64,000 nucleotides of DNA from contig OZ223481.1 of assembly GCA_965140785.1 (NCBI GenBank), positions 448,001 through 512,000 on the forward strand, given 5' to 3'. Below, piece by piece: positions 4,569-46,724 of this stretch (the first letter of the stretch is position 1; every line of letters begins with the position of its first letter). The position numbers and the translations under genes are program-made. The notes under the pieces are model-generated. The model was not told the DNA's origin. It was given only the letters and a program-made list of their open reading frames with translations, and made no database searches. This stretch comes from an uncultured Ruficoccus sp. (lineage in GTDB: Bacteria; Verrucomicrobiota; Verrucomicrobiia; Opitutales; Cerasicoccaceae).

Positions 4569-4753
4569 ATGCCAGTTTGGCGAGAAATATCGATTTGTGG
4601 AAACACGTCGGTATAAAACCCGGGTCAGGCGGGATGGTTCTGCAAAATGAACCGGTCCGTCTGACGAGTATGCCAACCCACCCCGTATTCGTTATGTTTG
4701 CCAAAGTATTTGGACTCCTTTCCCTGCATTCTTGCTCCATGTTTGCTGTCTTC

Positions 4754-7804: not shown

Positions 7805-8683
7805 ATGTACGTTAATTGTTATTATTACGGTCCGCATGCCCACTCCATGTTGATTGAGCATCTGGACCACGATTTGGCCCATATCGCCTCTCTGGGCACG
7901 AACGCGGTTTCTCTTTGCATCAGTGAATTGAATCTGGAGCTTTGGACCGCAAAGCGGCTTGAGCGCGTTTGCAAACGCATCCGTGCCCATGGGATGGAGG
8001 TGCATGCGGTACCGAACCGATGGGCAGGCATTGTCGCCGGCTGGATAGACGGCTTTAATGGTTGGAGTGTCGAGCATGCGGACTGTCTCTTGCCGGGCTA
8101 TCCGCCTCACCAGGCCTTTTCTGATCCCAAACAACCGGCGACCCGTGAGCATTATGAGACAACCTTGACGCGGCTCTTTGATTTTTTTGATTTCGAGGGG
8201 CTGGTTTGGGATGAGCCGTGCCCGGGGATTGCTCCGGTGGTTGAATTCCTGGACGAGATGGCCGGCTTTGCGAAAACGCTCAGGCCAGGCTTGGTTACGA
8301 GCCTGTTCTTGGCGGCGCCCGATCTAGAACTGAGTGAGGCACTCGCGCGGACAAAGCACATCGAGTACCTGGGGGCTGACGGGCATATCCGGAACAATGA
8401 TTACCAGATGCACCGCATGAAAACGACGATCTTTGATGCCCATGCCAAGCATTATCCGGTGCTGACTCGGGCGGGCAAGAAGACCTTTTTCCTGCTTGAG
8501 GCGCAACGCCACCGGGACGAGGATCTCGGCAATTATCTGGAGAATGTGGAAGCCGCATTTTCACTCCCCATGGACCAGATGATGTACTACTACTCAGCCC
8601 ATGAGATGTTGAATCCCGAGAACGAGCGCCGCTTTAACCAAGCCACCTGGGATGCGGTTCGGCGGGTAACCGGGGCGTCCTGA
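7805..8683 (+). CDS. Hypothetical protein, probable TIM-barrel glycoside-hydrolase-like fold
   Basis: 292-aa ORF within the operon; DLAHIASLGTNAV and GLVWDEP resemble clan GH-A barrels. Confidence 0.6.
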   Translation: MYVNCYYYGPHAHSMLIEHLDHDLAHIASLGTNAVSLCISELNLELWTAKRLERVCKRIRAHGMEVHAVPNRWAGIVAGWIDGFNGWSVEHADCLLPGYPPHQAFSDPKQPATREHYETTLTRLFDFFDFEGLVWDEPCPGIAPVVEFLDEMAGFAKTLRPGLVTSLFLAAPDLELSEALARTKHIEYLGADGHIRNNDYQMHRMKTTIFDAHAKHYPVLTRAGKKTFFLLEAQRHRDEDLGNYLENVEAAFSLPMDQMMYYYSAHEMLNPENERRFNQATWDAVRRVTGAS

Positions 8684-32063: not shown

Positions 32064-33095
32064 GGATCGGCCAAAGGGGTCAGGCCAATAATTTAAATAT
32101 TGATTAGCCCCTGTGTTTGTGCTGAGGTGTGCGTATGGCAAGGGCTGTTCGCTTTCAGTTTCCGGGTGCGATTTACCATGTGCTCAATCGTGGGAACTAC
32201 CGTAAGGATTTGTTTACGGCGGGTGAGAGCGGGGCATGGTTTGTGCGGGCGCTGCAGGAGGCCAGTGAGCAGTGTGGCTGGCGTGTCCATGCCTACGTGG
32301 TGATGAGTAACCACTATCACCTGGTGGTGGAGACGCCGGAGCCGAACCTGGTCGATGGGATGCATTGGCTGCAAACGACGTTTGCGAGCCGCTTCAATCG
32401 CTCGATGGGCGAGCGCGGGCATGTGTTTCAAGGCCGCTACAAGGCGCTGCTGGTGGCACCGGGTCCTCACTTTACGGGGGTGGTCAATTATGTGCATCTC
32501 AACCCCGTACGCGCGGGCCTATGCACGCTGGAGGATTTGAGGAGCTATGGCTTGGGCAGCTATGGCCACTTTTTTCGCAAACATCGTCCCGACTGGCTGG
32601 TGCGCGCGGAATTCCTCGGCCAACTGCACCTGCCCGACAGCCTGAAAGGGATGAACACTTACGCAAAAATGCTAGCATTGGCCGATGAGCAAGACCCCGA
32701 AAAACGGGCGTCGCTGAGTCGCGAATATTGCCGGGGCTGGCTGATCGGTGACAAGGCCTACCGCGAGCAAGTCCTGGAGCGCATGAACAAGCATGAGTTG
32801 CGGGGGAGCCACTGCGGTGACGATGTCCGCAACCTCAACGAGTTTCGTTGGGAACAGGCGCTGGCAGAACAACTCAAGCAGCACGAAAAATCGTCAGAAG
32901 ACATTACCCGCGCCCCCAAGGCCGCTGATTGGAAAATCGCAATTGCCCGGCACATGCGCACCCACACCCGCGCCACCAATCCCTGGCTCGCAAAAAAGCT
33001 CTCCATGGGCCATCCCTCACGCGTCAGCAACTTGATATACAATCGCGACATTTAAATTATTGATCTGACCCCTTCGGCTCCCTTTGGCTTGATCC
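32064..33095. mobile_element. Y1/RAYT-type transposase element bounded by inverted repeats
   Basis: AAGGGGTCAGGCCAATAATTTAAAT (32074..32098) matches the reverse complement of 33050..33074 at 23/25; outer GGATCGGCCAAAGGG / CCCTTTGGCTTGATCC. Confidence 0.75.
32135..33055 (+). CDS. HUH Y1 transposase (IS200-like / RAYT family)
   Basis: YHVLNRGN, AYVVMSNHYHL (HUH), GHVFQGRYK, YVHLNPVRAG. Confidence 0.9.
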   Translation: MARAVRFQFPGAIYHVLNRGNYRKDLFTAGESGAWFVRALQEASEQCGWRVHAYVVMSNHYHLVVETPEPNLVDGMHWLQTTFASRFNRSMGERGHVFQGRYKALLVAPGPHFTGVVNYVHLNPVRAGLCTLEDLRSYGLGSYGHFFRKHRPDWLVRAEFLGQLHLPDSLKGMNTYAKMLALADEQDPEKRASLSREYCRGWLIGDKAYREQVLERMNKHELRGSHCGDDVRNLNEFRWEQALAEQLKQHEKSSEDITRAPKAADWKIAIARHMRTHTRATNPWLAKKLSMGHPSRVSNLIYNRDI

Positions 33096-33338
33096 GGCCG
33101 TGCTACGGCAGGACCTTGAGGCTGCCGGGATCGCTTATCAGGACGAGGAGGGCCGCTATGTGGACTTCCATTCCCTGCGGCATACCTGGGGCACGTTTTT
33201 GCAGGTCAACGGCGTGACGCAGCGCGAGGCTATGGAGTTAATGCGCCATCAGGACGAGCGGCTAACGTCGAAGATTTACACCGACACGCACCACCTGCGG
33301 CTCTTTGAGAAAGTCGAGGCTTTGCCCGCCCTCGAAAA

Positions 33339-33362
33339 AGGGTCACACATAGGGTCACAGAT
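33339..33362. repeat. 12-bp tandem repeat AGGGTCACACAT/AGGGTCACAGAT, probable integrase arm-type sites
   Basis: Direct repeat about 120 bp from the att site. Confidence 0.5.
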
Positions 33363-33483
33363 TTCTGGTAACTCGGGCAAAGTCCTGACAAAACGTGGCA
33401 TAAACAGTCACGATAATTCCGTTTCGGAACCTGTTGAATCTGAGTCGGTTTGCGCCGTTCTGACCCCGCCTGACACAGGCGGG

Positions 33484-33502
33484 AAAGTGGCGTCCCCACG
33501 GG
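33484..33502. repeat. att direct repeat, a copy of the tRNA-Glu 3' end (AAAGTGGCGTCCCCACGGG)
   Basis: 19/19 identical to 45589..45607. Confidence 0.92.
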
Positions 33503-33630
33503 GAGGTGATGCTTTGAGTCTTCTGTGCTGTTGAAAATCAGCGCCTTATGTAATTGTCTCAAGCGGGCGATAGCTACGTTTTGTGACCAAATATATAACA
33601 GGGCAAATGATGGTATGAAAAGGCTAAAAA

Positions 33631-34017
33631 CTAGAAAGTCTCTGGATCGCGTTCGTGGACTTCAGGAATATTGGTGGAAAAAGTGATGGTTGAGTTGTCA
33701 TAATCAATATGAAAATCAACGACTTCATCGTAATCATACTCTGGTATCATATCCTTGCATCCCATATAGGCTTCGCCCCGAAACGAAACATTTAAGTATC
33801 CTTGCTCCGGGTTTTCAAAAGACACATCACCTGCCCAATCTACCCCGCAAAACGTTTCACGTATATTCTGACAAAAGCCTGCGAAAAGAGTTTCTTCCTC
33901 ATCGCTAGATAATTTATCAAAAAATAATTTGATCAGCGCTTCTTTGTCTGAAAGAGCATTGCCTTTAAGTACCTCTAGATCTTCTTCAAAGATGTACTCT
34001 GTTACAGATGCTTCCAT
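33631..34017 (-). CDS. Acidic hypothetical protein (128 aa)
   Basis: Clean ORF in an AT-rich region, downstream of the HNH gene. Confidence 0.65.
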   Translation of the reverse strand: MEASVTEYIFEEDLEVLKGNALSDKEALIKLFFDKLSSDEEETLFAGFCQNIRETFCGVDWAGDVSFENPEQGYLNVSFRGEAYMGCKDMIPEYDYDEVVDFHIDYDNSTITFSTNIPEVHERDPETF

Positions 34018-34091
34018 TGGTTTAGCAGAACGTTTTTTATTATTCTTTATATCGATTACTTGTATTTTGTTTTATTGTCGATTGATGGCAA

Positions 34092-34727
34092 CTAAGTTTT
34101 TTTAAACCTATCTGTGATCGCTCTAATTCTTGGCAGAAATGTGGAGTCGAACTCTTGTCGAATCATTTCATCTGCGACAAACGGAAGCCTTTTTTGTAAT
34201 TCCGAAAAGCTTATGAAGGAACGAACGTAAAATGATACCCACCTTGTTCTTTCTTCTACCAACCTACTTTTATTTAGCAAGTTGATAGTAGCGCTGTGTC
34301 GCTGAAAGTCGGTTGATGCATTTATTAGAAAAGTTCTAAAATCCAATGTAAACAACCCGTGTGGAATCTCAAAGGGGTCGTCTATGTTGACCGAATCACC
34401 TTTGTCCTGATTTACAAAAGCTCTTGCTAGACGAAAATTATCCCACTCATAAGCCTGATGTGGATTATGACTTTTTGGAATAAAGTGATCCACAGACGAA
34501 TGATCATCGCTCGCCTGAGGATTTCTTGGCATTGGAATCCACGCCGAACAGTAAGCACACACTCCAGAATACAACGTGTATAATTCATTATGAGCACGAC
34601 TCCAATATCGATGGTATTTGAACTCGTGACTCGTAGGATTAGGTGTTCTAGTTAGAAATCTCTGCCCCGGTGTCCTTACCCGCGTGTTGAAGTTAGGGGG
34701 CTCTGGTTGCCGCGTTACTGGTTTCAT
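34092..34727 (-). CDS. HNH endonuclease (PtuB-like)
   Basis: CAYC...SVDHFIPKS...YEWDNF..N..KG; ATGA overlap with the ATPase stop codon. Confidence 0.85.
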   Translation of the reverse strand: MKPVTRQPEPPNFNTRVRTPGQRFLTRTPNPTSHEFKYHRYWSRAHNELYTLYSGVCAYCSAWIPMPRNPQASDDHSSVDHFIPKSHNPHQAYEWDNFRLARAFVNQDKGDSVNIDDPFEIPHGLFTLDFRTFLINASTDFQRHSATINLLNKSRLVEERTRWVSFYVRSFISFSELQKRLPFVADEMIRQEFDSTFLPRIRAITDRFKKT

Positions 34728-36571
34728 ATCTGAACTCCATGGTCCTCTGCGAATAACAACCAAGTCATCCAGAATTCATCATCAGGAGGTAGAACTTTAA
34801 GTAATTGGTCTGTGAGTTTTTTGACCTCAATCGACGATGCTAGCTTTGGTTCTAATTGAACGGTGCGTGCACGTTTAATTAAAGTTTCAGCATATTTACT
34901 CCTAGGTTCGGCTAGTCCAAATATATCTGAGCTTAGCCAATTATCGACTTTGCCGTGCCGAATGAAATCTTTTTCTTCAAAGTTAACCGTACCGGAGGAA
35001 GTGCAATCTAGGTGAAACGTTTTATCGCTTTCAGAATCAAAAAAACTATCTACAGATGCTAGGACTAATGGAGAATGAGACGCTACTAGTATTTGAATGT
35101 CAATGTCGTCATTCAAACTATTAAAGACACGTATGATTGCAGGTAATAAAATCCTTTGCCACTTCGGGTGTAAGTGTGCTTCAATCTCATCGATTATTAA
35201 AACGATCCTCTGCTCAAATTTATTTCCAGTTTCTCGTGATAATTGTAGATGCCGACTCCAAGTCCAAACAACTAGATAGGCGAGAGTCAGTATTCTACGA
35301 ATTCCCGCTGAGGCCAGTTTTAGGGGGACCTGACCGTACCTGTGTACTATGGAAGGAGTATCTCTGTAGTCTCCAATCAGTCTAATTGGAGGGCCAGCTT
35401 CAATAATCCCCAGGTCTGGTGGGGATAGCTCTTTAAGTGCGAGCATAAGCAGTCGAAACTCGTCGCTATCAGTTGCTTGCCATGAAATCCAGTCTCTGAG
35501 TAGCCCTTCGATAGATGCTTCGTTCCCTTTGAAAACATCGTCTCTTGTAAAGTTCAGGGCTTTTTGACCTATCGCTGTCCTATGCGGGTCCCATACTGAG
35601 AAAGAACCATCCACTCGTGCATAAATGACTAGGCCGGAGAGAGTTGGTCGCTTCCTAGGGGTTTGCCATCGCCCTAATTTTGGTGCAAATTTTAATTCTA
35701 TAGCATCGCCCGGATTATCACTTGATATTTGAAATTTGATAGTTGCGTTCTGGGGGGAAACCGCGCTTGTGGGGTAGGCTTGTTCGGCTGCCCATTCCCC
35801 TGTCAAAGCCCACCATGCCATATCGAGAATGAAGGTTTTGCCCAAACCATTATCTCCTGTGATGAGGTTGAGTCTTTCCCCAAGACTCATTTGAAGATTT
35901 TTGATACAACCAGTTCCATGTGCCTCAAGATAGGATAGTATACCGCCCGATTCGGGTTCAAGATCGGGGGGCGCAGAAAAGTGATTCAGAATGGCATTCG
36001 GTTCGAGGGGCAAGCTGTCGAACTTGAGCCGGTTAGCCAATGGTTGTAGGTCGAATAACTTATTCTGCTCCTCTGCGTTTACGGCGAAATAATCGGTGAA
36101 TTTAGCGATAATATCTGAGCTGGTCGTCTGATCCGACCAAGCCTCTTTTTTGAAAATCCAACACGCCAGAGGCAGCATTGGGATTTTTTTGGAATTTAGA
36201 AGTGCCTGTTGAAGTATGTCTATATAGTTCGGAGACCATCCCCATTTACTGCTCTTTTTCTCATGTAAAAAAGCGCTCTTGAAGGTGCGGGTATTGACAC
36301 TTTGCAATCCTTTTCCGGCATAATCGGGTCGTAGCCAGTCTTGGTTCTTCTCGTTGAACCTTAGCACTCGAAAAAACCATCTTGAACGAGGGTGGATTCG
36401 ATAATGTCTGACTAAAAAGTCTTTGTTCAGGTTATCTAGACTAATATCTATCTGGGAACCGACCGGTAGTCGCACTTCTTTGCAAGAAAGATAGCTTGTG
36501 CCAAAAAAAACATTAAAGTCTTTGAGTAATCTGATGGACTCAAGCAACGAATCTGCTGATATGTATTTCAT
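34724..36571 (-). CDS. ABC/SMC-type AAA ATPase (PtuA-like) with an extra N-terminal domain of about 200 aa
   Basis: Walker A GDNGLGKT, signature-like ASAG, Walker B/D-loop LIIDEIEAHLHPKWQ, ASHSP. Confidence 0.88.
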   Translation of the reverse strand: MKYISADSLLESIRLLKDFNVFFGTSYLSCKEVRLPVGSQIDISLDNLNKDFLVRHYRIHPRSRWFFRVLRFNEKNQDWLRPDYAGKGLQSVNTRTFKSAFLHEKKSSKWGWSPNYIDILQQALLNSKKIPMLPLACWIFKKEAWSDQTTSSDIIAKFTDYFAVNAEEQNKLFDLQPLANRLKFDSLPLEPNAILNHFSAPPDLEPESGGILSYLEAHGTGCIKNLQMSLGERLNLITGDNGLGKTFILDMAWWALTGEWAAEQAYPTSAVSPQNATIKFQISSDNPGDAIELKFAPKLGRWQTPRKRPTLSGLVIYARVDGSFSVWDPHRTAIGQKALNFTRDDVFKGNEASIEGLLRDWISWQATDSDEFRLLMLALKELSPPDLGIIEAGPPIRLIGDYRDTPSIVHRYGQVPLKLASAGIRRILTLAYLVVWTWSRHLQLSRETGNKFEQRIVLIIDEIEAHLHPKWQRILLPAIIRVFNSLNDDIDIQILVASHSPLVLASVDSFFDSESDKTFHLDCTSSGTVNFEEKDFIRHGKVDNWLSSDIFGLAEPRSKYAETLIKRARTVQLEPKLASSIEVKKLTDQLLKVLPPDDEFWMTWLLFAEDHGVQI

Positions 36572-37404
36572 TGGACAGCCTCATTTAAAATATATCTACA
36601 ATAGTCTTCATTGAGTTCGATTCCAATAGCGTTTCTACCTTCGCTAAGAGATACTCGCAACGTAGTTCCGCTTCCTGCAAAGGGGTCAAGGACACTGCCG
36701 CCAACAGGGCAGCCGATTTGAATGCATCGATGGACCAATTCATCTGGAAATGCAGCCGTATCAATCTCACCTCTAACCTTTGGTCTTGGGCTGATAGTCC
36801 AAACGTCTTCATCGATGCGATTGTTCTTTAGGTGTTCCCGATTGAAATAATATCTCCTACTTTTTGCGAACATAAATACAAACTCGTATGACCTCCTTGG
36901 TCGGTCACGCACGGATTCCGGAAGGCATTTTTCTCGATGCCAAATTATTGAGCTTCGCAATACCCACTCGGATTCGCAAAGCCTCATTGCGATTCTCCAA
37001 GGTATCCCTATCAATGATTTTCTTTGTAGTCCGACTCCTAAGCCTCCGCTTCTATCGACTGCCCGTAGTCCGAACCTTCGCTTTTTACTTTTAGCATCCT
37101 TACCCTGCGACTGGCCCTTGCCAGAATAGTAGGTGTCACCTATATTGAGAAAAAATGTTCCCTCTGGCTTGAGGATTCTTTTAAGTTGTTCTCCTACCAA
37201 AAACAATGACTCGACATAATCTGCTATAGAGTTTTCAAGTCCAATCTGACCATCGACCCCATAGTCACGTAGCCAAAAATATGGGGGGGAAGTAATAATG
37301 CAATCTACTGATTCTGAAGGAATTTGCGTGAGACAGTCATGGGCATCCCCGCAATGAAGCTGCCAAGTGTTCCCTGCTATATTTAGTCCATTCCATTGAG
37401 GCAT
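36568..37404 (-). CDS. Site-specific DNA methyltransferase (N4C/N6A, beta class)
   Basis: TSPPY catalytic motif precedes VLDPFAGSGTT SAM-binding motif; GIELN. Confidence 0.92.
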   Translation of the reverse strand: MPQWNGLNIAGNTWQLHCGDAHDCLTQIPSESVDCIITSPPYFWLRDYGVDGQIGLENSIADYVESLFLVGEQLKRILKPEGTFFLNIGDTYYSGKGQSQGKDAKSKKRRFGLRAVDRSGGLGVGLQRKSLIGIPWRIAMRLCESEWVLRSSIIWHREKCLPESVRDRPRRSYEFVFMFAKSRRYYFNREHLKNNRIDEDVWTISPRPKVRGEIDTAAFPDELVHRCIQIGCPVGGSVLDPFAGSGTTLRVSLSEGRNAIGIELNEDYCRYILNEAVQ

Positions 37405-37466
37405 AAGCTTGATATACAAGTAAATAAAGACGTCGTTGTGCAATCACCAAAATAGTTGGTGTCCGT

Positions 37467-37578
37467 GTTCACAAAAACGACCGTTTCCCTGAACTCCAAC
37501 TCCACTTAGCAGACATATGAGAGAAAAAGGGATTATTGGTTCAATAAACTGGTTTTTAAAAATAGAGTTTACAAAACC
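37467..37578. promoter_or_regulatory. res site of the serine resolvase
   Basis: 28-bp site I GTTCACAAAAACG-AC-CGTTTCCCTGAAC and inverted half-sites GGTTCAATAAACT...AGTTTACAAAACC upstream of the gene. Confidence 0.65.
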
Positions 37579-37603
37579 AAAATTTCACGAGTAATGTAAA
37601 CTC

Positions 37604-38185
37604 ATGAAGTTTGGCTACGCTCGTGTTTCCACTGCGGATCAAAACCTAGACCTGCAAATTGATGCTCTCCAAAAGGAGGGCTGCGAGAAAATCTTTAAAG
37701 ACAAGATTTCAGGCGCGAAGATCGAGCGCCCGGAATTCGACAAGATGCGCCAACTCCTGCGGGAGGGGGATATTGTCGTCGTCTACAAGCTGGATCGCTT
37801 GGGCAGAAGCTTAAGGCATCTCGTGGAGATTGTCTCTGACTTTCAGGAAAATAAGGTCAGCTTCAAATCCCTGAACGATCCCATTGATACCACAACCTCT
37901 CAAGGGAAGCTGATTTTCAACATATTCGCCTCTCTGGCTGAGTTTGAGCGCGATTTGATCCGGGAGAGGACTCGGGCCGGGTTGGACTCTGCAAGGGCTA
38001 GAGGGCGCCTTGGAGGCCGTCCTAAGGGGCTTTCCGCTGAGGCAGAGCAGAAGGCGATTATCTGCGAGTCTCTATACCGTGAAGGCAAGCACACGGTAAA
38101 CAATATTGCACGTCAACTGAAGCTGTCTAAGGCGACTCTCTACAAGTATCTGAGGCATAGGGGCGTCGAGATCGCCCAATCCTAG
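37604..38185 (+). CDS. Serine recombinase (resolvase/invertase)
   Basis: GYARVST, KLDRLGRS, AEFERDLIRERT..GL..AR.RGR.GGRP, C-terminal HTH. Confidence 0.95.
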   Translation: MKFGYARVSTADQNLDLQIDALQKEGCEKIFKDKISGAKIERPEFDKMRQLLREGDIVVVYKLDRLGRSLRHLVEIVSDFQENKVSFKSLNDPIDTTTSQGKLIFNIFASLAEFERDLIRERTRAGLDSARARGRLGGRPKGLSAEAEQKAIICESLYREGKHTVNNIARQLKLSKATLYKYLRHRGVEIAQS

Positions 38186-38240
38186 CCATCATTGGCCGGT
38201 GCTGATTCCCTCCCCTGCGGAACGTGTAGTCACTCCCGCC

Positions 38241-38261
38241 CATTTTGAACCCGGTTCAAAT
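38241..38261. repeat. 21-bp palindromic repeat CATTTTGAACCCGGTTCAAAT (copy 1)
   Basis: 20/21 identical to 43398..43418; core TTTGAACC-C-GGTTCAAA. Confidence 0.8.
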
Positions 38262-38264
38262 GCT

Positions 38265-39437
38265 TCAAAACTTGAGGTTTACATCAGCCTTGAGGGCAGC
38301 CTCTACAGCTTTCCGCATCTGAAGGCGGACTATATGGGCATGTTGCTTCTTGCAGACAATAGAGTCATGCACCGTGCCAAACGGAATTTTGGCCTTAACA
38401 AGCCTTATTCCGACATTATGGATAACTAAGTTCGCTTCCGCGTTCTGAAGGTATATGGCAAACCTTGAGCGATGCCCTTGTTTCTGTGCATCTATCAAGC
38501 CTGAGAGGATTGGGAAAAGCCTTTTCATTGCCTGCCAAAGTTGGCCCGTAGAGGGGGCGCGGTTGAAGAAAATCTGCTGGTAGCAGGCCACTTTGATCTT
38601 TTTACGAATCTTCAGCCTGCCTCCTGCTTCTTTTGCAATCTGAGTGTAGAAGTCCCCTTCAATGAATTTCAAGTAACGCGCCATTTCCTCCCGATGGGCT
38701 TTACTCCGGCGATTATAGAGGGTGGCAGATAGTAGAGGCTGTGCGCTTGGTATATCGACTTCAACCACGTCCTCCCCATCGAGAGTAAGCAACTTCCGCA
38801 TATCTTTTGGCGTACTGGTCAAGGCGTGAAAACAGCGCTTCGATTGGGGAGATTTTGTAAAAAAGCTGCTCTGCCCATTGACGAAGTCGCGACACATCTC
38901 CCGGTGACTTCGCTTACGCTTCTGGTACCGTCGAATGAGGACATCTACGTCGGACTTGAACTTGAATCTCTCCAGATTTTCTCGAATAGCATCATAGGGG
39001 AAGCCGACTGCCAATTCCGGTTGAGTGGCATTGAACTGCCTTACTCGCTTGAGGCACCGAGTATCTACAATCTTCATTTTCAGCTGACGGAGATTGGCGT
39101 AGGCAGGCTTTAAGCGATAACAAATCGATTTCTCTCCGGGAATATATCGGTGATCGCATTCAATCACACCCAAATCTTCCAACATATCTCGGGCCTCTCG
39201 TGCATACCCTTGACCAAGCAGGCGCTTCAGCATCGATCCTTTGATTTGCACCCATCCGTCATCCCCCTCTCTGGAGTATGCAGCTACAAACCCAATCCAG
39301 TTTATCAGGGTAATAAACAACAAAGCTTTGTGATGCCGTTCAACGCGAAGACTGTAATACTGAGGCATTCGCTCCTTCCTGGCGATTGCCCCTAGGTCAA
39401 ACCCCTTTGGAAGTAGGTAATACTCTGGCACCTTCAT
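38265..39437 (-). CDS. Compact family-A DNA polymerase-like protein (390 aa)
   Basis: Motif A VEVDIPSAQP, motif B RKKIKVACY, LQNAEA, motif C VHDSIV; no exonuclease domain. Confidence 0.6.
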   Translation of the reverse strand: MKVPEYYLLPKGFDLGAIARKERMPQYYSLRVERHHKALLFITLINWIGFVAAYSREGDDGWVQIKGSMLKRLLGQGYAREARDMLEDLGVIECDHRYIPGEKSICYRLKPAYANLRQLKMKIVDTRCLKRVRQFNATQPELAVGFPYDAIRENLERFKFKSDVDVLIRRYQKRKRSHREMCRDFVNGQSSFFTKSPQSKRCFHALTSTPKDMRKLLTLDGEDVVEVDIPSAQPLLSATLYNRRSKAHREEMARYLKFIEGDFYTQIAKEAGGRLKIRKKIKVACYQQIFFNRAPSTGQLWQAMKRLFPILSGLIDAQKQGHRSRFAIYLQNAEANLVIHNVGIRLVKAKIPFGTVHDSIVCKKQHAHIVRLQMRKAVEAALKADVNLKF

Positions 39438-39602
39438 GAAGTTCCCTTCTTTCCGCTCATAGTTCCGTCTATGATCCCCCCTCCTATTTATGATTCCGGT
39501 TTGAACCCGAAATCATAATTTTAGGTCATTCATGGATATGGTGAACAATCGCTTGTCGCAAGCGTATAGAGCATAGGAGATGAGATGCGGATACTCCTAG
39601 AC

Positions 39603-40346
39603 CTACCAGCTCACGACCCATCGAACGGGTATCTGTTCGGTGCCGTTGTCGCAGTTGGGGCAGGGATACCAGCGGTCGGGGGATTTCCCTTTTTCGATCT
39701 CGCCCCGCAAGCTGCCTTTGCCGTGGCAGAGGGGGCACGGGATGGCTTCGACATCGTAAATGATCAGCGTCCTTTTCCTGTCCCGAAGGATTGAAGTAAA
39801 ATCCGTTTGGCTCAGGCCGTTGCCAGACGGATTAATGTCCGGGGTCCATTCCTGTACTCTGCGTACGGTGCGAGTTGCTCCAATCACGCTCATGTATTGA
39901 TATGTCCCTGCGTCGAAATAGTAGAGGTAGACTTCTTGATCGTCTAAGACCTTGCGGGAATCACCCAACACCAGCGCAACCACTTCGCTGCCATTCGATC
40001 TGGGAGTGGCCAGACTGGGAGCGCCCTTGTAGGGGCTGGCCTGAAAGACTTTAAAGTACCCCTGTTTAGGATAATGGTCAGGGAGAATGATGGGGACATC
40101 GCCGGGGGCGAGATACTGCTTTTGCCAGAGATGAAACAGGCGCAGCAGGGTTTCGCGGGGGTATTTGCTGCTTCCGGTTTCGCCAACCCGAAACTCTCTA
40201 ACGTCCATACGCGCTTCGAAGGACGGGGGTGAACCATAATTTGTCGGGTGGCCTGTCAACGTATCGCCCGCTAGGGGCGAGGTCGCGAAGCTGGCCAGCA
40301 CTACAAGATTGCGCAACAGCATTAACATTCTATTTCCGTCACTCAC
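39603..40346 (-). CDS. Secreted hypothetical protein with a C-terminal DnaJ-like Zn finger
   Basis: Signal peptide; CPLCHGKG...CPNCDNG. Confidence 0.7.
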   Translation of the reverse strand: MSDGNRMLMLLRNLVVLASFATSPLAGDTLTGHPTNYGSPPSFEARMDVREFRVGETGSSKYPRETLLRLFHLWQKQYLAPGDVPIILPDHYPKQGYFKVFQASPYKGAPSLATPRSNGSEVVALVLGDSRKVLDDQEVYLYYFDAGTYQYMSVIGATRTVRRVQEWTPDINPSGNGLSQTDFTSILRDRKRTLIIYDVEAIPCPLCHGKGSLRGEIEKGKSPDRWYPCPNCDNGTEQIPVRWVVSW

Positions 40347-41080
40347 TTTGATTTATCCTTCACGCCCTGAGGCTTCTTGGCCAAGTCCTTGAATTTATCG
40401 AAATAAGGCTGGAAAACAGCTTCCAACCAAAGGCGGTTCGCCATGCGCTGGGCAGCGGCTCCACCTGCGGAAGAGGACGCTTGGGCATAATTGCCAAGGT
40501 CGCTCTCAAGCGAAGACTGGATAAACGCGATTCTCTCCAACAGGTTCTCAGCCTCTATCTTGACCACGTAGCCGCAATAGCGCCGGTAAATGCCGGGGTC
40601 CACATCTGTTCTCTCCCCGCTCACATGGGTGTGATTAGCCCTTCTGCTGGCTTCCGTGTATTTGACGGGTTGCGGGATTGTATTGGCGGGAAAGTCGTTG
40701 ATGAGTGTCTGAATCTTTGCCTCAAGCGCTTCGTGCTGCTGGCGTTTCTGCTCGACGAACTTCCGTGTGGGAGCATCGAGCATTTCCAGCGGAATTGTTA
40801 CCTTCATTGGGTCTCCTTTCACATCCCGGTAGTCCAACCGCTCAACGATTACGGATGTATCATCGGCAGAGATATAAATGCCCTGAATCGAACGCCCATC
40901 GACAGAAGTAAACGTATCAGCGGGAGCGGCTTCCTCAGTATTCCCTTGGGCCGCATGCAAGGGGTAGAGAGAAGTTAGCAGGATCAGGACACCCACAGGA
41001 TACATTTTCAAATGCCGTAATTTCATCGGGAGGGATGGCATATTTGCGCTTCCCGTATGGGGCACGCTGTATGAGTTCAT
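40343..41080 (-). CDS. Secreted hypothetical protein with an SHD1-like motif
   Basis: Signal peptide (..YPLHA); TFTSVDGRSIQG..IPLEML; GTGA overlap with the next gene; start uncertain. Confidence 0.65.
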   Translation of the reverse strand: MNSYSVPHTGSANMPSLPMKLRHLKMYPVGVLILLTSLYPLHAAQGNTEEAAPADTFTSVDGRSIQGIYISADDTSVIVERLDYRDVKGDPMKVTIPLEMLDAPTRKFVEQKRQQHEALEAKIQTLINDFPANTIPQPVKYTEASRRANHTHVSGERTDVDPGIYRRYCGYVVKIEAENLLERIAFIQSSLESDLGNYAQASSSAGGAAAQRMANRLWLEAVFQPYFDKFKDLAKKPQGVKDKSK

Positions 41081-41180
41081 CCCGTTTTTTAGCCCGCTAG
41101 TTAGATGACAGGCAACCTAAAAATGCTACGTATATGGTGTAGATGTATTTGCATCAAAAAGATATTCTACCTGCGCAAGC

Positions 41181-41411
41181 ATGGGGACAGAGGCAAAGAA
41201 GGAGTTACGACAACTTGGCGAGGCGATTCGAGTCGCCCGCAAGCAGATGAATGTTAGCCAAGAAGACTTTGCCGAATGGTGCGACCTTCACCGAACCTAC
41301 ATCGGCCATGTCGAGCGTGGAGAGGTCAATGTCTCGTTCAGGAATGTCCTGAAGATCGCCGCCGCGTTGAAGATGAAGCCTTCTGTCTTGCTGGATGCGG
41401 CGAATCTTTGA
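41181..41411 (+). CDS. XRE-family HTH regulator (C-protein-like)
   Basis: IRVARKQMNVSQEDFA..LHRTYIGHVERGEVN. Confidence 0.9.
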   Translation: MGTEAKKELRQLGEAIRVARKQMNVSQEDFAEWCDLHRTYIGHVERGEVNVSFRNVLKIAAALKMKPSVLLDAANL

Positions 41412-41685
41412 TCGATGTTTGCTCCCTGTGCTTCTGTAAGCAGCGGACAAATTCATCTTCTGTGATTCTCACAGCCCATACCTCTCCTAGAAATTCGGCA
41501 TCTGGGGCAATATTATGGGTAACGTTCAAAACCTTGAAGTAACCTTGATCGTAAATTTCGATCTCTTCGCCTTGGCATGGTAGTCGAAGAACCTCATAAT
41601 ATTCATGGTTCTTCCAGACTGTCGAACCCGGTTCATGGGTGTGGAGGTATATTTTTACCGTAGGTATCATATGGTTGTTTTTCAT
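41338..41685 (-). CDS. Hypothetical protein
   Basis: Starts 4 bp after the terL stop; its 3' end overlaps the XRE gene. Confidence 0.55.
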   Translation of the reverse strand: MKNNHMIPTVKIYLHTHEPGSTVWKNHEYYEVLRLPCQGEEIEIYDQGYFKVLNVTHNIAPDAEFLGEVWAVRITEDEFVRCLQKHREQTSIKDSPHPARQKASSSTRRRSSGHS

Positions 41686-41689
41686 AATT

Positions 41690-43018
41690 TTATGCTAGCG
41701 CTATGGTTGACCTTGGCCGGTGATAGAGGGCTCCCAGCACGGCGTCAGCCCGATCCGGGGAAGACAGGCCGCGTGCGTGTAGTTGCGCCTTGGGTTCGAT
41801 CTGGACCTGTCCCCGGCTGTTAAGGGTGTACTGACGCGAGACAAGCTGCTCGTGGAGGAGTTTATCGGGCGGAAGGATGATTCCCCCTGTCTTAATCTTT
41901 TCCGCCCCTTCCAGCCAAATCTCTGTCCCCATATTGGCGTAGGCTTCGCTGTTCTTGGCCGGTTTCTCGTTGCGGATGCGGTTCACCTTCCACCCCTCTT
42001 CTTTCAGGCGGTCGCAGATGGGGATTCCGAGCCCGGAGCCATCGGCGCTGATATCTTGGGGCGTGAGCCCATGTTCGCGGAAGAGGCGGATGAACTCTCC
42101 GACTGCGGACATGGTGTCCCGCTCCCGCCATGCCTTGGCGATCTGGACGCGATTGCCGCGCCGGATAGCCAGGACATTTTCATCGCCCCCTGCCGCGAAG
42201 TCACAGAAGGCGTGTGTCTCGCCATCGGTGAAGGGGGTTTGCGCCTGTAGACACTGCTCAAGCGCGGATAGGGGGACAACGCAGCGGTCCCCGTCCTGTT
42301 CGGGGAACTCCGCATGGATCATGCTGCGAACGAGCGGGCTGTCTTCCCCGTATTTTTCAATCTGTTCGTCGATCCATTTCTGGGGGATATGCGGGCAGTC
42401 AAAGGAGGTTACCGTGAAAGGACGGAAGAAGCGACGCTCGGTGGTAAATGCCCGGTAGAACTTGCCCCGGCGCGGGCCGGGCGAACTCATCAGGAGGACA
42501 CGCGTGGGCTGGCAGCGGTCTATCGCCTCAAAGATTTCATCGGGGATGGACTTGGCTTCGTCGCAGATGACGAGGAGGTTGTCGTTGTGCCAGCCTTCGA
42601 AGCGCCCCGGATCATCAGTCGAAAAGCCGTAGATGCGTGACCCTGTGGGCGTCTCGACTTCGGTTTCCAGAAATTTCCAGTGCGGGAAAAGGTGCTGATA
42701 GGCGCGGATGCCGGGATAGAACTGTTCCTTGACCTGACGGAAGACGCCCGCCGTAACCAGCGTCATACTGCCGGGGAATACGGCAGCATGCCAGAGTGCG
42801 AGCGGGACACCTAGGCTGGAGGTCTTGCCCGTGCCGTTTCCCGCCTTGATGGCAACGGAGCTTCCCCGCTTATCCAGCGCCGCTAGGGCGTCCTGCTGCC
42901 ATGGGTATAGCTCCATGCCCAAAACGCCTCTGGCGAAGCCGTAGGGCAGGTGTAGGAGGCTTGCAGGGTCATTCGCTGTCGGTGCTGCTGCCTTCATAGC
43001 GCTTTCTGGCCTCCGCAA
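41690..43018 (-). CDS. terL: Phage terminase large subunit
   Basis: YPWQ, Walker A AGNGTGKT, Walker B VICDEA, SSPG, nuclease DFAAGGD, DGSGLG, SPDRADA. Confidence 0.88.
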   Translation of the reverse strand: MRRPESAMKAAAPTANDPASLLHLPYGFARGVLGMELYPWQQDALAALDKRGSSVAIKAGNGTGKTSSLGVPLALWHAAVFPGSMTLVTAGVFRQVKEQFYPGIRAYQHLFPHWKFLETEVETPTGSRIYGFSTDDPGRFEGWHNDNLLVICDEAKSIPDEIFEAIDRCQPTRVLLMSSPGPRRGKFYRAFTTERRFFRPFTVTSFDCPHIPQKWIDEQIEKYGEDSPLVRSMIHAEFPEQDGDRCVVPLSALEQCLQAQTPFTDGETHAFCDFAAGGDENVLAIRRGNRVQIAKAWRERDTMSAVGEFIRLFREHGLTPQDISADGSGLGIPICDRLKEEGWKVNRIRNEKPAKNSEAYANMGTEIWLEGAEKIKTGGIILPPDKLLHEQLVSRQYTLNSRGQVQIEPKAQLHARGLSSPDRADAVLGALYHRPRSTIALA

Positions 43019-43400
43019 TCGCGTTCAGTGTGGTCTCATCGATCCCCAGCCGATGATTGATCGTCCCCTCGTGCCGGTGGGCAACCTCTAGGCGGCTCTT
43101 GGCGAAGTGTTCCGGGCGCACATGCTCCAGCCACCATTTGGCGGCGCTCAGGTCTCCGGCGTCTATCGCTTCCCGTATCGCCTTCAGGCGGGTTGCCACG
43201 CCCCTAGCCAACGCCTTGTCTATGGCCTCAGAAAACTCAGGAAACTTCCGCCGCCATTCGCAGAAGGTCTCATAGGAAATCCCTGCCAGCGCCGCCGCAT
43301 CCTTTAGGGGGAGCCCGTCCCCGATGTGTTCAAGGATGTCCTTGGTCAAGGCGGGCGTCCGCTTCGACGGCCTGCCGCATTTTCTGGTTTTCGTACGCAT
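42969..43400 (-). CDS. terS: Terminase small subunit-like HTH protein
   Basis: GRPSK..HTH AAALAGISYETFCEW..PEFSEAI..AAKWWLE; directly upstream of and overlapping terL. Confidence 0.75.
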   Translation of the reverse strand: MRTKTRKCGRPSKRTPALTKDILEHIGDGLPLKDAAALAGISYETFCEWRRKFPEFSEAIDKALARGVATRLKAIREAIDAGDLSAAKWWLEHVRPEHFAKSRLEVAHRHEGTINHRLGIDETTLNAIAEARKRYEGSSTDSE

Positions 43401-43418
43401 TTTGAACCCGGTGCAAAT
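43398..43418. repeat. 21-bp repeat CATTTTGAACCCGGTGCAAAT (copy 2), containing the terS start codon
   Basis: 20/21 identical to 38241..38261. Confidence 0.8.
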
Positions 43419-43572
43419 TTTGGAAGTTAAAGCGGGCTGCCTATGCCACCTTAACTTACGCAACCCCTACCGGGTTAATAATGTCCGCCAGAAATAGTGT
43501 CAATACATATTGTTGATAGCAAACAGTATGTAACAGATTAGTTGTCAATGGCCGCCTTGTCTTGTCAGGCGT

Positions 43573-45480
43573 TCAGCTCTGTTGAATCTGATAAATGTTC
43601 GGCTTTCTTGTCGGGCGTAATTTATCCAGAGAGAGCCGCTTAAGGTCCAAGCCATAATCGACTTTCTCAATGGCGGTCTTGAGATATTTAATAGTGGGAG
43701 CCTTTTTGTGGATATAATTACTCCTCATCGCATGTTCAAAGAACTTCCTTTCTTGGGTGGACCAGCCGCATAGGGCATCAATGATTCCCAGCTCAAGACC
43801 TGCCTCATGACATGCCGTTGCAAACGTATGCCTAAAGGAATGGAAAACGAGTTCTCGGGTTTTTATTGAGGCGAGCTTTTTAAGGACAACTTCATTGAAC
43901 CATCGCGATACGCCTTGGGGGCGTAGGTTTGGGAAAAGTCTTTGGGAGGTAGGCTCAATGTTTCGTTTGTAATCCATCAAGCCGAGAGCCAGTAGCTTGC
44001 TATGAACGGGAACAACCCTCACGCTGCCCGGTGTTTTTGCTGACTGTCCTTCCTTCGCGTTCGTGATCGAAAAACTGTAAATCTTGTCCTGCTCGACGAT
44101 CTGATCGCAATGAAGCTGGCAAATCTCGCCAAGACGGGCTCCCGTGTAGAGCGCGATTAGGGGCACCCAGAAATATCCGTTATGGATGATGTGATTGCCC
44201 GGACAATTTCGTCGTTTAAGGTTTTTGCAACCGGTGTAGGAGGGGACGGAGAATATCTTCCTGAGCATGTCTGCCTTGAAGGGTTCTCGGACTATGGAGG
44301 CGCTAGCTGTATCTCTCCGGGCATTATTCGTGAATCTGTAGTTCGTTGCCCAACACTTATCGATCAGTCCGGTTTCTTCTGCGAACATGAATGCTCCCCG
44401 TATCCTTCCGAGGGAATTATTGACCGTGTAGTTGTTTCGCCGTGTATCGCCGTCTTTATCTGCGATCTTGATGCATTCTCCATACGATTTACCGAGATAT
44501 TTCTTTCCCGTTCTCGGGGGTAACGCCGCGATCTGCTTTTTTATCAACTGAAAATCATCATAGGTCAGGGTCTTGATGTCTTTGTCTCCAAGGAATTCCA
44601 CCATGACCTCCTTTGAGGTATTCAAATCCGTGCGGATTTTTTTAGAAATTTTTCCTTCTCCCTCAGACTTCTTATACTCTTCGTAGCGTGTGAACAACTG
44701 GGAGATCGTGACCTTTGGCCTTAGCGCTTCATCTGCGATGTGCTCTTGAGGGACTGAAGCGACCATGGCGGCTTCAAGCTTTGCCAATTCCTTGGGGTAG
44801 AAGGGGGTGCTCAAGCGCTTGTCGAGGCAATCCAGCTCCCATCTATGGCATTCGTCCAAGATGCTCCACATGAGGCGGGACAGCTTCTTAAAGCATTTCC
44901 CATCCTCTCGAAGGTGGATATTGTTATCCAAGCAAATTTGCTTGGCCGCTATGACATGCGGCAAGTCGTCATGCCTGCGCCGTCGATTCGAGTGAAGGTC
45001 GTGTAACTCTTGGTGGAGATCGGCCTTGAAGTCCTGAACCTTGCCGGAGACATACTCGGATTCCTTTTCATCTATGGCGATGTCGATAAAATTGAGGAGC
45101 ACATCCCTTTCATTGCTGAACCAATTTTCAAACCACTCATCGATCATCGCGAATAGCTGAGATAGCGGGACTGCATCTATCGGTGCGATTTCCGCGAGTT
45201 TGGCTGTCAATTTGGCATGATGGGAAAGGATATTCTGCCTAAACGGGTGGCGTGGCTGCTGAGTCAGCCTGCGGGCGTCTTCGATCTGCTGATCGAATGT
45301 GGAGAGATTCTTCCGGTGCTGCTTTTCAATCTCTGCGGCAGGTCCGCCGCCTATCTGGACTGTGAGGTATTTTTTACCGATTACGGGCTGCACATCGGCA
45401 GGGACGGGATAGCGGCTGAAGTAGGCTTTTCGTTGCTTGCGAAACGTCAAATATTTGGCCTTGGGCACGGCTTCTTCCAT
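43573..45480 (-). CDS. Tyrosine integrase/recombinase with a long N-terminal region
   Basis: YTGARLGEICQL, KT..S.R.VPVH, FHSFRHTF, GW...Y; adjacent to tRNA-Glu. Confidence 0.92.
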   Translation of the reverse strand: MEEAVPKAKYLTFRKQRKAYFSRYPVPADVQPVIGKKYLTVQIGGGPAAEIEKQHRKNLSTFDQQIEDARRLTQQPRHPFRQNILSHHAKLTAKLAEIAPIDAVPLSQLFAMIDEWFENWFSNERDVLLNFIDIAIDEKESEYVSGKVQDFKADLHQELHDLHSNRRRRHDDLPHVIAAKQICLDNNIHLREDGKCFKKLSRLMWSILDECHRWELDCLDKRLSTPFYPKELAKLEAAMVASVPQEHIADEALRPKVTISQLFTRYEEYKKSEGEGKISKKIRTDLNTSKEVMVEFLGDKDIKTLTYDDFQLIKKQIAALPPRTGKKYLGKSYGECIKIADKDGDTRRNNYTVNNSLGRIRGAFMFAEETGLIDKCWATNYRFTNNARRDTASASIVREPFKADMLRKIFSVPSYTGCKNLKRRNCPGNHIIHNGYFWVPLIALYTGARLGEICQLHCDQIVEQDKIYSFSITNAKEGQSAKTPGSVRVVPVHSKLLALGLMDYKRNIEPTSQRLFPNLRPQGVSRWFNEVVLKKLASIKTRELVFHSFRHTFATACHEAGLELGIIDALCGWSTQERKFFEHAMRSNYIHKKAPTIKYLKTAIEKVDYGLDLKRLSLDKLRPTRKPNIYQIQQS

Positions 45481-45592
45481 GGGCTAATTGTTACCAGATT
45501 TGTAACCAACGCCAAGGAGATAGCTTTCGTAAGAAGCTGGTTTCCAACAACCTGTTGATGCCCAAAAACTTTTGCCACTTAAACTTGAAAAG

Positions 45593-45670
45593 TGGCGTCC
45601 CCACGGGGATTCGAACCCCGGTCGCTGGAATGAAAATCCAGTGTCCTAGACCTGACTAGACGATGGGGAC
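45593..45670 (-). tRNA. tRNA-Glu (TTC)
   Basis: GTCCCCA acceptor stem, CTGGA-TTTTCAT-TCCAG anticodon arm, GTTCGAATC, CCA end. Confidence 0.97.
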
Positions 45671-45806
45671 TTAGCCAGTTGGAAGCGGATGAAGTTAGGG
45701 CGTATCGGGGTGGGCGCAAGGATTTTTTTGCAGGAATTTAAAAAAGTGCAGGGGCGGGCAATTCCGCGTTTGCTCCCGGGGGCGCGGGCACCTATGCAAA
45801 GGGGCC

Positions 45807-46724
45807 ATGACGTTTGACGAAGTCAAGGCGGCTCTGCCCCGGCAGGCCATGCGTGAAGTGACCGGTCTGCCCTACAGGCACATCGGCTCGGGCAAGGTGC
45901 GGGAGATTTACGATCTGGGCGAGGCGCTGCTGCTGATCGCCACCGACCGGCTCTCGGCTTTCGACGTGGTGCTGCCCGACGGCATCCCCGGCAAGGGCAT
46001 CCTGCTCACCCAGGCCAGCCTCTGGTGGTTTCGTCAGACCGAGGGACTCATCCCCAACCACCTTGTGCCCAACCACGACGCGGTTCTGCGCGAGACGCTG
46101 AAGGACTTCCCTCAGCTCGTCCCTTACAGCATGCTGGTCAAAAAGCTCGCTCCGGTCAAGCTGGAGGCCGTTGTGCGCGGTTATCTCGCCGGGAGCGGGT
46201 GGAAAGACTACAAGCAGACCGGCCAGCTTTTCGGTCTCGACCTGCCCGCCGGTTTGCAGGAAAGCTCGGCCCTGCCCGAGCCGCTCTTTACCCCGACGAC
46301 GAAGGCGGACGAGGGTCACGACCTGCCGGTAGGCGAAACCGAAGCCAAGGCCATTGTCGGGAGCGCGACCTACGAGCAGATCAAGGCCGTCAGTCTGGAG
46401 ATTTTCCGTATGGGTACTGAGAAGGCTGCCGCGTCCGGTCTCATCCTGGCCGACACGAAGTTCGAGTTCGGCACGGATACGGCGGGCTCGCTGTACCTGA
46501 TTGACGAGGTGCTGACGCCGGATTCCTCGCGCTACTGGCCGCAGGAGGATTACCAGCCGGGCCGCCCGCAGACCGCTTTTGACAAGCAATACGTGCGCGA
46601 CTACCTGGAGACGCTCAACTGGGGCAAAACCTATCCCGGTCCGAGCCTGCCGACCGAGGTTATCGCAAAGACCCAGGAGCGTTACCTGACCGCCCTGGAA
46701 AAGCTCTGGCAGAGCCTGCAATAG
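45807..46724 (+). CDS. purC: SAICAR synthase
   Basis: SGKVREIY, ATDRLSAFD, ADTKFEFG, DEVLTPDSSRYW, FDKQYVRD. Confidence 0.97.
   Translation: MTFDEVKAALPRQAMREVTGLPYRHIGSGKVREIYDLGEALLLIATDRLSAFDVVLPDGIPGKGILLTQASLWWFRQTEGLIPNHLVPNHDAVLRETLKDFPQLVPYSMLVKKLAPVKLEAVVRGYLAGSGWKDYKQTGQLFGLDLPAGLQESSALPEPLFTPTTKADEGHDLPVGETEAKAIVGSATYEQIKAVSLEIFRMGTEKAAASGLILADTKFEFGTDTAGSLYLIDEVLTPDSSRYWPQEDYQPGRPQTAFDKQYVRDYLETLNWGKTYPGPSLPTEVIAKTQERYLTALEKLWQSLQ

Follow-up and report, generated by a model that had tools for sequence, protein, structure and literature searches.

In phage lambda the site cosB adjoins Nu1. The pac site of phage P22 lies inside the gene for the small terminase subunit (terS, encoding TerS), the contacts of SPP1 are made around the cut site (PMC9611059 section 5), and 11–19 bp can suffice for TerS binding (preprint 10.1101/2024.04.22.590561); how small terminases choose their DNA is still described as unsettled (PMC9611059). 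In phage T4, recombination between the pac sequence of gene 16 and a homologous stretch of gene 19 amplifies the region between them, which holds the gene for the large terminase subunit (terL, encoding TerL) (PMC10893049 section 12; PMC3012670), and this recombination led to a twin-ring synapsis model in which two TerS rings join two pac sites (PMC10893049; PMC3012670; PMC9958956 section 4.1). The T4 gene 16/19 pair is the closest precedent for the subject of this study, a terS-linked site with a second copy past terL in a 64,000-nt stretch of DNA from an uncultured Ruficoccus sp. of the Verrucomicrobiota (contig OZ223481.1, positions 448,001–512,000; the whole stretch is called the window below, and its positions are counted from its first letter). 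An earlier note on this DNA had pointed to a 21-bp palindromic direct repeat that brackets terS, terL and a polA-like gene, and had suggested that it might release the bracketed block as a 5,157-bp circle, serve as an att or terminal repeat, or act as a packaging signal, a replication signal or an operator. We found that the repeat belongs to a family of palindromic sites shared by a group of related islands, and we consider it highly probable, judging from sequence comparison, that it works as a protein-binding site on DNA and is linked to the terminase module.

A search of the window for the pattern CATTTTGAACCCGGT(T/G)CAAAT on the plus strand returned two matches, and none of 100 dinucleotide shuffles contained any match. 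As confirmed by reading the sequence, the matches are CATTTTGAACCCGGTTCAAAT at 38241–38261 and CATTTTGAACCCGGTGCAAAT at 43398–43418; they are identical at 20/21 positions and are spaced 5,157 bp from start to start, so the coordinates, identity and spacing given in the earlier note were all borne out. Both lie inside a 12.1-kb island (33484–45609) integrated at a tRNA-Glu gene. The core of the 21-mer is an 8-1-8 palindrome, TTTGAACC-C-GGTTCAAA, which is perfect at 38244–38260 and has one arm mismatch at 43401–43417, and both copies end in ATG when read on the coding (minus) strand. For the dyad-symmetric copy at 43398–43418 (copy A; minus-strand sequence ATTTGCACCGGGTTCAAAATG) these final three bases are the start codon of terS. 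The mechanically called open reading frame (ORF) begins upstream at TTG 43463, and an alignment with 21 homologs supports ATG 43400–43398 as the predicted start, giving a protein of 143 residues, the same length as in the closest related locus. The copy at 38241–38261 (copy B, also read on the minus strand), which contains the perfect palindrome, is separated by 3 nt (38264–38262) from the stop codon of the PolA-like gene (38267–38265) and lies 56 nt past the stop codon of a convergent serine recombinase gene. The placement of the copies at the terS ATG and just past the PolA-like stop is therefore as the earlier note had it. That note also listed two partial copies, and both are present, although their numbers are close to what shuffled sequence yields: GAACCCGGTTC at 41624–41634 lies within a 115-residue ORF (at least three matches in 15/100 shuffles), and GGGTTCAAA is at 39500–39508 (at least four matches in 3/100 shuffles). 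The latter does fall in the loop of a stable hairpin on the minus strand (39488–39518; 12-bp stem, 7-nt loop GUUCAAA equal to one half-site; z score −2.9, with 1/200 shuffles folding equally well), which lies just upstream of the purine-rich ribosome-binding stretch of the PolA-like gene.

Scanning one genome per species with a TerL profile gave 216 relatives, and the 80 loci taken from these made up, with the window, a motif search space of 1,370,727 nt (1.37 Mb). The terS–terL pair was conserved in 21 of the 80 loci. The exact 21-mer had no match with four or fewer mismatches in the 80 loci, the best being three chance-like matches with five mismatches. The closest comparator, L001, has a TerL 74% identical, a TerS 63% identical and a serine recombinase 77% identical to those of the window; this 11-kb island sits at a tmRNA gene and keeps the window's order of integrase gene (int), terS, terL, a few genes, serine recombinase, defense cargo and a homolog of the window's 128-residue ORF. 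Just upstream of its terS ATG it carries its own version of the site, TTGCAACAGTTTCAA, with an exact second copy 7.4 kb downstream. The family pattern TTG[AC]A[AC][CG]-N1-2-[CG][GT]T[GT]CAA had 13 matches in the 1.37 Mb, compared with a mean of 0.6 in 20 shuffles, and all 13 were confined to the window and its seven closest relatives; the matches in L007, L009 and L018 played no part in writing the pattern. The conservation of the motif that the earlier note had asked about thus holds for the family of sites and not for the exact 21-mer. Pairs of sites, 1.7–7.4 kb apart, were seen in the window, L001, L003, L006 and L007, and single copies in L002, L009 and L018; a looser symmetric scan added one candidate variant (L016) and two likely chance matches.

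As a control, we compared the recurrence of each terS leader within its locus with that of random 66-nt windows (40 trials each). Random windows equaled the terS leader in 1/40 trials for the window, 0/40 for L001, 1/40 for L003 and 0/40 for L006, although the L006 result came from another 16-mer (9541/16363) and not from the palindrome; for the remaining 16 loci random windows did so in at least 15/40 trials. No palindrome near terS with a second copy was found in the other terS-bearing loci beyond those already described. The nearest annotated phage TerL is that of Akkermansia phage Chambord, in which no site was seen by eye in the 200 nt before terS or by the looser scan in a 9.2-kb stretch. 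Searches of phage records with TerS gave distant matches only (≤36% identity, including two Streptococcus satellite records), and these yielded no additional motif loci.

The site recurs at particular places in these islands. From the end of copy A or its counterpart to the terS ATG there are 0–20 nt in five elements (window, L001, L002, L003, L006), which does not hold for L007, L009 and L018, and the position homologous to copy A is thus occupied in four of the related islands; in L002 and L006 the site takes up the whole 20–30 nt gap from the stop codon of the upstream ORF to the terS ATG. The second copy, found 3 nt past the PolA-like stop in the window, is 8 nt past a 459-residue ORF in L003, 23 nt past terL in L006 and ~95 nt past terL in L007, and in all four it comes after the co-directional terminase block. 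L001 has in addition a third near-copy (7897–7911), inverted and with one mismatch in 15, in the 5′ part of int. The copies internal to int in L001 and L009 fall on non-homologous codons, and the int of the window is without such a copy.

The arms of the palindrome changed in a concerted manner. Within the motif family, arm positions 1–3 and 5 are invariant, and positions 1–3, 5, 6 and 7 are symmetric in all 13 instances; for positions 6–7, which read CC in the window, AC in L001, L002 and L006, and CG in L003, L007, L009 and L018, this symmetry was seen although the pattern permitted asymmetry. The arms are common to both copies of any one island. At position 4 each arm has A or C regardless of the other arm, and 7/13 instances are asymmetric there. 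In contrast to the arms, the center, the spacing and the relative orientation of the copies are not conserved across islands: in L003 the centers are GA and AC, which are unequal in either orientation, in L007 the arms are swapped between copies, and a direct match of the two copies is better in the window, L001 and L006, while an inverted match is better in L003 and L007. When the motif was folded as RNA, in 7/13 instances its hairpin either was not the predicted fold or was no stronger than −1.4 kcal/mol and did not outdo shuffled sequence. The asymmetry at position 4 and the lack of a hairpin in those instances argue for a protein acting on duplex DNA and not for a hairpin; what remains is a predicted duplex-DNA binding site for a symmetric protein whose specificity would have drifted together with both arms.

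Our favored reading is that these are pac-type sites. The two 21-mers would be island-specific, dyad-symmetric sites in double-stranded DNA, built from the half-site TTG-M-A-M-S inverted around a 1–2 bp center, and would belong to a site family kept by a group of small Verrucomicrobiota terS–terL islands that integrate at tRNA or tmRNA genes, with one copy at the 5′ edge of terS and the second beyond the terminase block (here past the PolA-like gene). The island's own TerS would bind these sites, which would mark the island DNA for packaging by TerS–TerL, and TerS may bring both sites together, in the way suggested for the sequences in genes 16 and 19 of T4. That the repeat is functional is highly probable because the motif is family-wide, position-specific and symmetrically co-varying. 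All-against-all clustering of the ORFs of the eight motif loci found only TerS and TerL in all eight; the next families, namely the Int type of the window, XRE proteins, the serine recombinase and a family of ORFs of ~235–526 residues (L003, L006, L009), each occurred in three of eight. Should the island itself encode the binder, the candidate is TerS, since it is the DNA-recognition subunit and carries a helix-turn-helix (HTH). The packaging-signal and operator alternatives raised in the earlier note fit these comparative data well. Our assignment of TerS as the binder and of packaging as the function is nevertheless tentative: we infer it from sequence and rate it as a serious possibility that falls somewhat short of an even chance.

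Several points weigh against TerS binding and packaging. The co-occurrence of the site with TerS and TerL is partly built in, as the loci were recruited via TerL. The known pac sites of Sf6/P22-type TerS proteins are asymmetric or poorly defined, binding by TerS in vitro is often weak and non-specific, and the T4 synapsis model is said to be one that “may be limited to T4” (PMC9611059). A tight palindrome of 15–17 bp looks more like the operator of a dimeric HTH protein than like the site of a ring-shaped TerS, and a center of 1 nt in nine instances and of 2 nt in four is awkward for a rigid binder. The distribution of the site is also uneven: the family pattern was matched in only 8 of the 22 terS-bearing sequences (the window and 21 loci), or 9 of 22 with the looser variant of L016; L002, with the closest TerS, has a single copy; and L004 and L005 had no site in the looser scan although their TerS proteins group with that of L018 (in a Biopython neighbor-joining tree, which carries no support values). 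Exceptions in placement are that copy A of L007 lies 1.2 kb upstream of terS, that the second copy of L001 lies within a 445-residue ORF, and that the only copy of L009 (5736–5751) lies inside the 5′ part of int. We also looked by eye for co-variation between residues of the TerS helix and the type of half-site, but this tracked overall relatedness only and was not used as evidence.

The likeness to T4 is that a short terS-linked sequence and a homologous copy past terL bracket the large-terminase gene; the T4 pair is implicated both in the binding of TerS and in the recombination by which the enclosed segment is amplified (PMC10893049; PMC3012670; PMC9958956). T4 differs in that the 3′ end of gene 16 holds its site, for which no palindrome is described in the sections that deal with it (PMC10893049; PMC3012670; PMC9958956), and its TerS is without a canonical HTH (PMC9611059), compared with the Sf6-type TerS here; unlike T4, the window has as its site a tight dyad on the 5′ border of terS, in a 12-kb integrated island. 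In lying in or beside the terS gene the site is like the pac or cos sites of P22, SPP1 and lambda, but the pac site of P22 is a single asymmetric 22-bp sequence and SPP1 has several contact points (PMC9611059), whereas the site studied here is palindromic and occurs in two near-identical copies (three in L001) that are separated by kilobases. Beyond simple recognition, we think it quite unlikely, arguing by analogy with T4, that the paired sites form a built-in synapsis pair for TerS or a pair by which TerS amplifies the 5.16-kb terS-terL-PolA segment or loops it out. With two copies in cis, a single-copy island could assemble the double TerS complex, for which T4 is proposed to require two genome copies in alignment, and start packaging without prior concatemers. 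If TerS does synapse both copies, then occasional looping-out or amplification of 5.16 kb, i.e., the circle of the earlier note, would be a by-product; if TerS-driven looping-out or amplification is true, the T4 gene 17 amplifications would have a counterpart in nature, and the reshuffling of modules at the sites between islands would be explained as well. Defined, short, high-information TerS recognition sites are rare. If TerS binds, this family would offer a natural test set (a 15–17 bp dyad, three half-site variants with matching changes on both arms, and naturally paired copies) that could be used to test TerS specificity and twin-site synapsis outside T4.

Operators of the Cro/CI type (XRE) are dyads of ~17 bp with an odd center and with half-site specificity that differs between related elements. 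The site is like these in its ~17-bp dyad, odd center and island-specific half-sites, and there is an XRE gene in the window's island. The main rival to a pac-type site, which we nonetheless think unlikely, is thus that the repeat is an operator for a dimeric transcription factor (the island XRE protein, a late regulator of a helper phage, or a host protein) that sits at the terS translation start and holds terS–terL off or on, while the second site, at the block's other end, works as a roadblock, as an insulator or as a partner in looping. Dyad symmetry over 15–17 bp with concerted symmetric changes in the arms is what such a factor would leave, the XRE gene lies between the two copies in the window and closely follows terL in L001 and L002, and the regulator RinA binds upstream of terS in staphylococcal phages (PMC3152322). 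We also saw by eye a promoter-like TTGACA-17-TATTAA ~75 nt upstream of copy A, which is however absent from the promoter scan listing, and unlike Cro/CI operators the site has no recognizable promoter overlap. It is internal to an operon in L002 and L006, where there is no room for a promoter between the stop codon of the upstream ORF and the terS ATG, and copy B lies between convergent gene ends (window, L006) or, in L001 and L009, inside ORFs, none of which are promoter positions. XRE is found in three of the eight motif loci, being absent from five, and no regulator family is common to all; no motif copies were found in the sampled host flanks, which argues against a host regulon. The positions at a translation start (copy A) and after the last gene of the block (copy B) would also suit an RNA element, in which a 5′ hairpin masks the terS start and a 3′ hairpin terminates or stabilizes the operon mRNA, and both copies of L003 do fold well (−12.4 and −8.0 kcal/mol). 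We regard this as extremely unlikely, as the seven instances with an absent or shuffle-level hairpin include copy A of the window (−0.5 kcal/mol, with 182/200 shuffles folding as well), position 4 puts C/U or A/G mismatches into the middle of the stem in 7/13 instances, a terminator scan called none at either copy, and Rfam had no family match to the site. Likenesses to sigma-54 promoters and to parS/Noc sites were considered and set aside, as their key positions do not fit.

Sites of small serine recombinases (res, hix/gix) are ~26–28 bp long with a strictly matching 2-bp center. An imperfect palindrome with a gene of the resolvase/invertase family nearby recalls these, and the earlier note's circle would follow if the direct copies were crossover sites at which a serine or other recombinase released a 5,157-bp terS-terL-PolA-like molecule. 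The window copies are direct, 20/21 identical and share the same central base, the serine recombinase gene ends 56 nt from copy B, and L001, with its 77% identical recombinase, likewise has an exact direct 16-nt pair; moreover, the order upstream ORF, site, terS that is expected from a circle exists linearly in L002 and L006 (where the ORF has no assigned function), and T4 offers a documented case of two pac-like sequences that recombine in a TerS-dependent manner (PMC10893049 section 12). Unlike res or hix/gix, however, the arms are 7–8 bp around a center of 1–2 bp, the center being a single base in 9/13 instances and unmatched in L003 in either orientation, and the swapped arms of L007 fit no better. 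The spacing of 1.7–7.4 kb and the enclosed gene content vary, the recombinase gene is inside the bracket in L001 and outside it in the window, and a serine recombinase is present in only three of the eight motif loci (window, L001, L009), with L003, L006 and L007 having pairs without one. The center mismatch in L003, the variable orientation and spacing and the recombinase in three of eight loci make a crossover site unlikely. In addition, the island has separate att repeats (an exact 21-mer described below), the repeat studied here being inside the element with int outside the bracket. With no recombinase family common to the motif islands, a circle or att role is poorly supported and is the least supported of the earlier note's own alternatives; we consider it very improbable. 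We also consider it very improbable that the copies form a replication element (origin, iteron or rolling-circle nick site) read by an island replication protein, with a start at one copy and an end at the other. A copy does lie 3–15 nt past the stop codon of a candidate replication gene (PolA-like in the window, 299/300-residue ORFs in L002 and L006, the 459-residue ORF in L003), and a half-site is in the loop of the strong hairpin just upstream of the PolA-like gene. These neighboring genes, however, are of three or more unrelated families, although the sites beside them all belong to one; the 299-, 300-, 445- and 459-residue proteins have no Rep-type Pfam or PHROG match, and the center, where a nick would be expected, is not conserved. 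Since the neighbors are unrelated and without a Rep signature, an origin read by the adjacent replication gene is unlikely. A Rep_trans-like reading of the 299-, 300-, 445- and 459-residue ORFs, made by eye, was dropped, as it had no Pfam or PHROG support even at loose thresholds.

The island that carries the repeat is bounded by its own att sites, which are the exact 21-mer at 33484 and 45589 and not the repeat discussed above. The right att repeat, AAAGTGGCGTCCCCACGGGGA (45589–45609), overlaps the 3′ end of tRNA-Glu(ttc) (45593–45670, minus strand), and the left att repeat (33484–33504) is an exact direct copy of these 21 nt. An Rfam scan of 33000–46000 matched only the tRNA and one chance-level miRNA. 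Reading leftward from the tRNA on the minus strand, int (43573–45480) encodes a 635-residue tyrosine integrase (Pfam Phage_integrase) with homologs in L001 and L009. The terS gene (42969–43400; 143 residues from the ATG, with an N-terminal HTH) matched PHROG 4102, terminase small subunit, with an E-value of 2.4e-22, and scored 27 bits against Pfam Sf6_terminase, which is at the cutoff. It is followed by terL (41690–43018; a 442-residue ORF, with a stored own-cluster form of 408 residues), which matched PHROG 2, terminase large subunit (E-value 1.6e-23), has 1536 homologs and is 36–41% identical to the TerL of Akkermansia phages. Downstream of terL on the same strand are the 115-residue ORF (41338–41685) that contains the partial copy GAACCCGGTTC, a 245-residue ORF (40343–41080), a 247-residue ORF with C-terminal CxxC pairs (39603–40346), for which we saw only a weak Q-like match (E-value 0.0036), and the 390-residue PolA-like gene (38265–39437); the 115-, 245-, 247- and 390-residue genes are all without homologs in the 80 loci. 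On the opposite strand to terL, a 76-residue XRE-type HTH protein (41181–41411, plus strand) clusters with proteins of L001 and L002 that carry Pfam HTH_3. This gene and the 115-residue ORF converge, their 3′ ends overlapping by 74 nt, and the low-complexity tail of the 115-residue ORF may not be genuine coding sequence.

Beyond copy B, a small serine recombinase of 193 residues is encoded on the plus strand (37604–38185), with Resolvase and HTH_7 domains, a PHROG annotation of “DNA invertase” and the 77% identical homolog in L001. It is followed by a low-GC cargo block on the minus strand (33631–37443, GC 0.43–0.44) that holds the 128-residue ORF, a PtuB-like HNH protein (34092–34763; PADLOC PtuB, E-value 1.1e-49), a PtuA ATPase (34724–36571; PADLOC PtuA, E-value 5.9e-197) and a type II N4/N6 DNA methyltransferase (36568–37443; PADLOC MTase_II, E-value 1.8e-83), all three on the minus strand; from these matches the cargo is predicted to be a Septu (PtuA/PtuB) system with a type II methylase. 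No capsid or tail genes were matched in the island by Pfam and PHROG scans. Since it has int, att sites and terS–terL without capsid or tail genes, the island resembles a phage satellite that encodes both subunits of a terminase of its own, and it is a candidate for dependence on a helper.

Capsid-forming phage-inducible chromosomal islands (PICIs) carry capsid genes along with terS and terL. The window's island recalls phage satellites with packaging genes, namely Staphylococcus aureus pathogenicity islands (SaPIs) and other PICIs with terS, the capsid-forming PICIs and virion-encapsidated integrative mobile elements (VEIMEs): it is small, has an integrase and sits at a tRNA gene, it encodes terminase subunits and anti-phage cargo, and capsid and tail genes are missing from it. 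TerS homologs have been found in marine VEIMEs (PMC9618062). Unlike the capsid-forming PICIs, it has terS and terL without capsid genes; it also has a PolA-like protein instead of a primase-helicase and a host in the Verrucomicrobiota. Its relatives sit at other tRNA or tmRNA genes and carry other cargo, with Dcm, GmrSD and HEPN in L001 and HNH, DUF4420, Z1, HATPase and Dcm in L002. These islands of 11–12 kb at tRNA or tmRNA genes, with int, terS and terL and no capsid genes, look like an undescribed Verrucomicrobiota family; no description of such islands came up in full-text literature searches, whose matches were judged mostly from titles and abstracts, which makes this weak evidence of absence.

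The label “polA-like” used in the earlier note for the 390-residue protein (38265–39437) held up at the level of the fold. An AlphaFold2 model (pLDDT 94.1, pTM 0.89) was used in a Foldseek search of the PDB, and among the matches listed all were family-A polymerases (probability 1.00, E-values from 2.9e-4, TM by query 0.34–0.44), the top ones being Aquifex Pol I, KlenTaq, Bst, T7 DNA polymerase and Pol theta. The model thus supports a compact family-A-polymerase fold, and polymerase activity is only predicted from it. The protein had no match in Pfam or NCBIfam, although we found 2,736 representative homologs at E-values ≤0.001, and D228, Q233, K282, H357 and D358 are invariant in a 50-sequence alignment. 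As there is no PolA-like homolog among the 80 loci, the adjacency of polA-like and terS that the earlier note had proposed to check among relatives was not found in any of them. The ORF beside copy B in L003 is homologous to its counterpart in L001 (E-value 2e-9), and no homology of either to the PolA-like protein was found.

Some of the related loci had features of their own. A sister group of terS–terL islands without the palindrome (L011, L015 and L008) has instead a tandem repeat of a half-site, TTGGCAA-N3-4-TTGGCAA, with two places per island; we located these at 4645 and 12069 in L011, at 3232 and 15295 in L015, and at 12624 in L008. In L011 one of the tandem repeats closely precedes the int ORF and the second is found ~750 nt past terL, and it may be that this is a different paired site of a sister clade. 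L018 (8259–9038 and 10001–11282), in which terS is closely preceded by a gene for a DDE transposase and terL is matched in two frames, may be a decaying island that lost its terS-proximal site. In L003 there is a second palindrome, CCGAACCCGGTTCGC (2690–2704), 40 nt upstream of the terS-proximal site, which shares the 11-nt core GAACCCGGTTC with the repeat of the window, possibly by coincidence.

Outside the left att repeat, an IS200-like transposase gene (Y1_Tnp, 32129–33055) lies between 29-nt inverted repeats (32070–32098 and 33050–33078), and a C-terminal integrase fragment (33100–33534) adjoins it and runs into the att repeat; the segment 32070–33534 looks like the remnant of an older element at the same tRNA site. 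The 390-residue protein is a member of a large family with no Pfam model, whose compact members of ~400 residues have the family-A polymerase fold, and distant relatives of it are encoded in three uncultured phage records of 595–642 kb.

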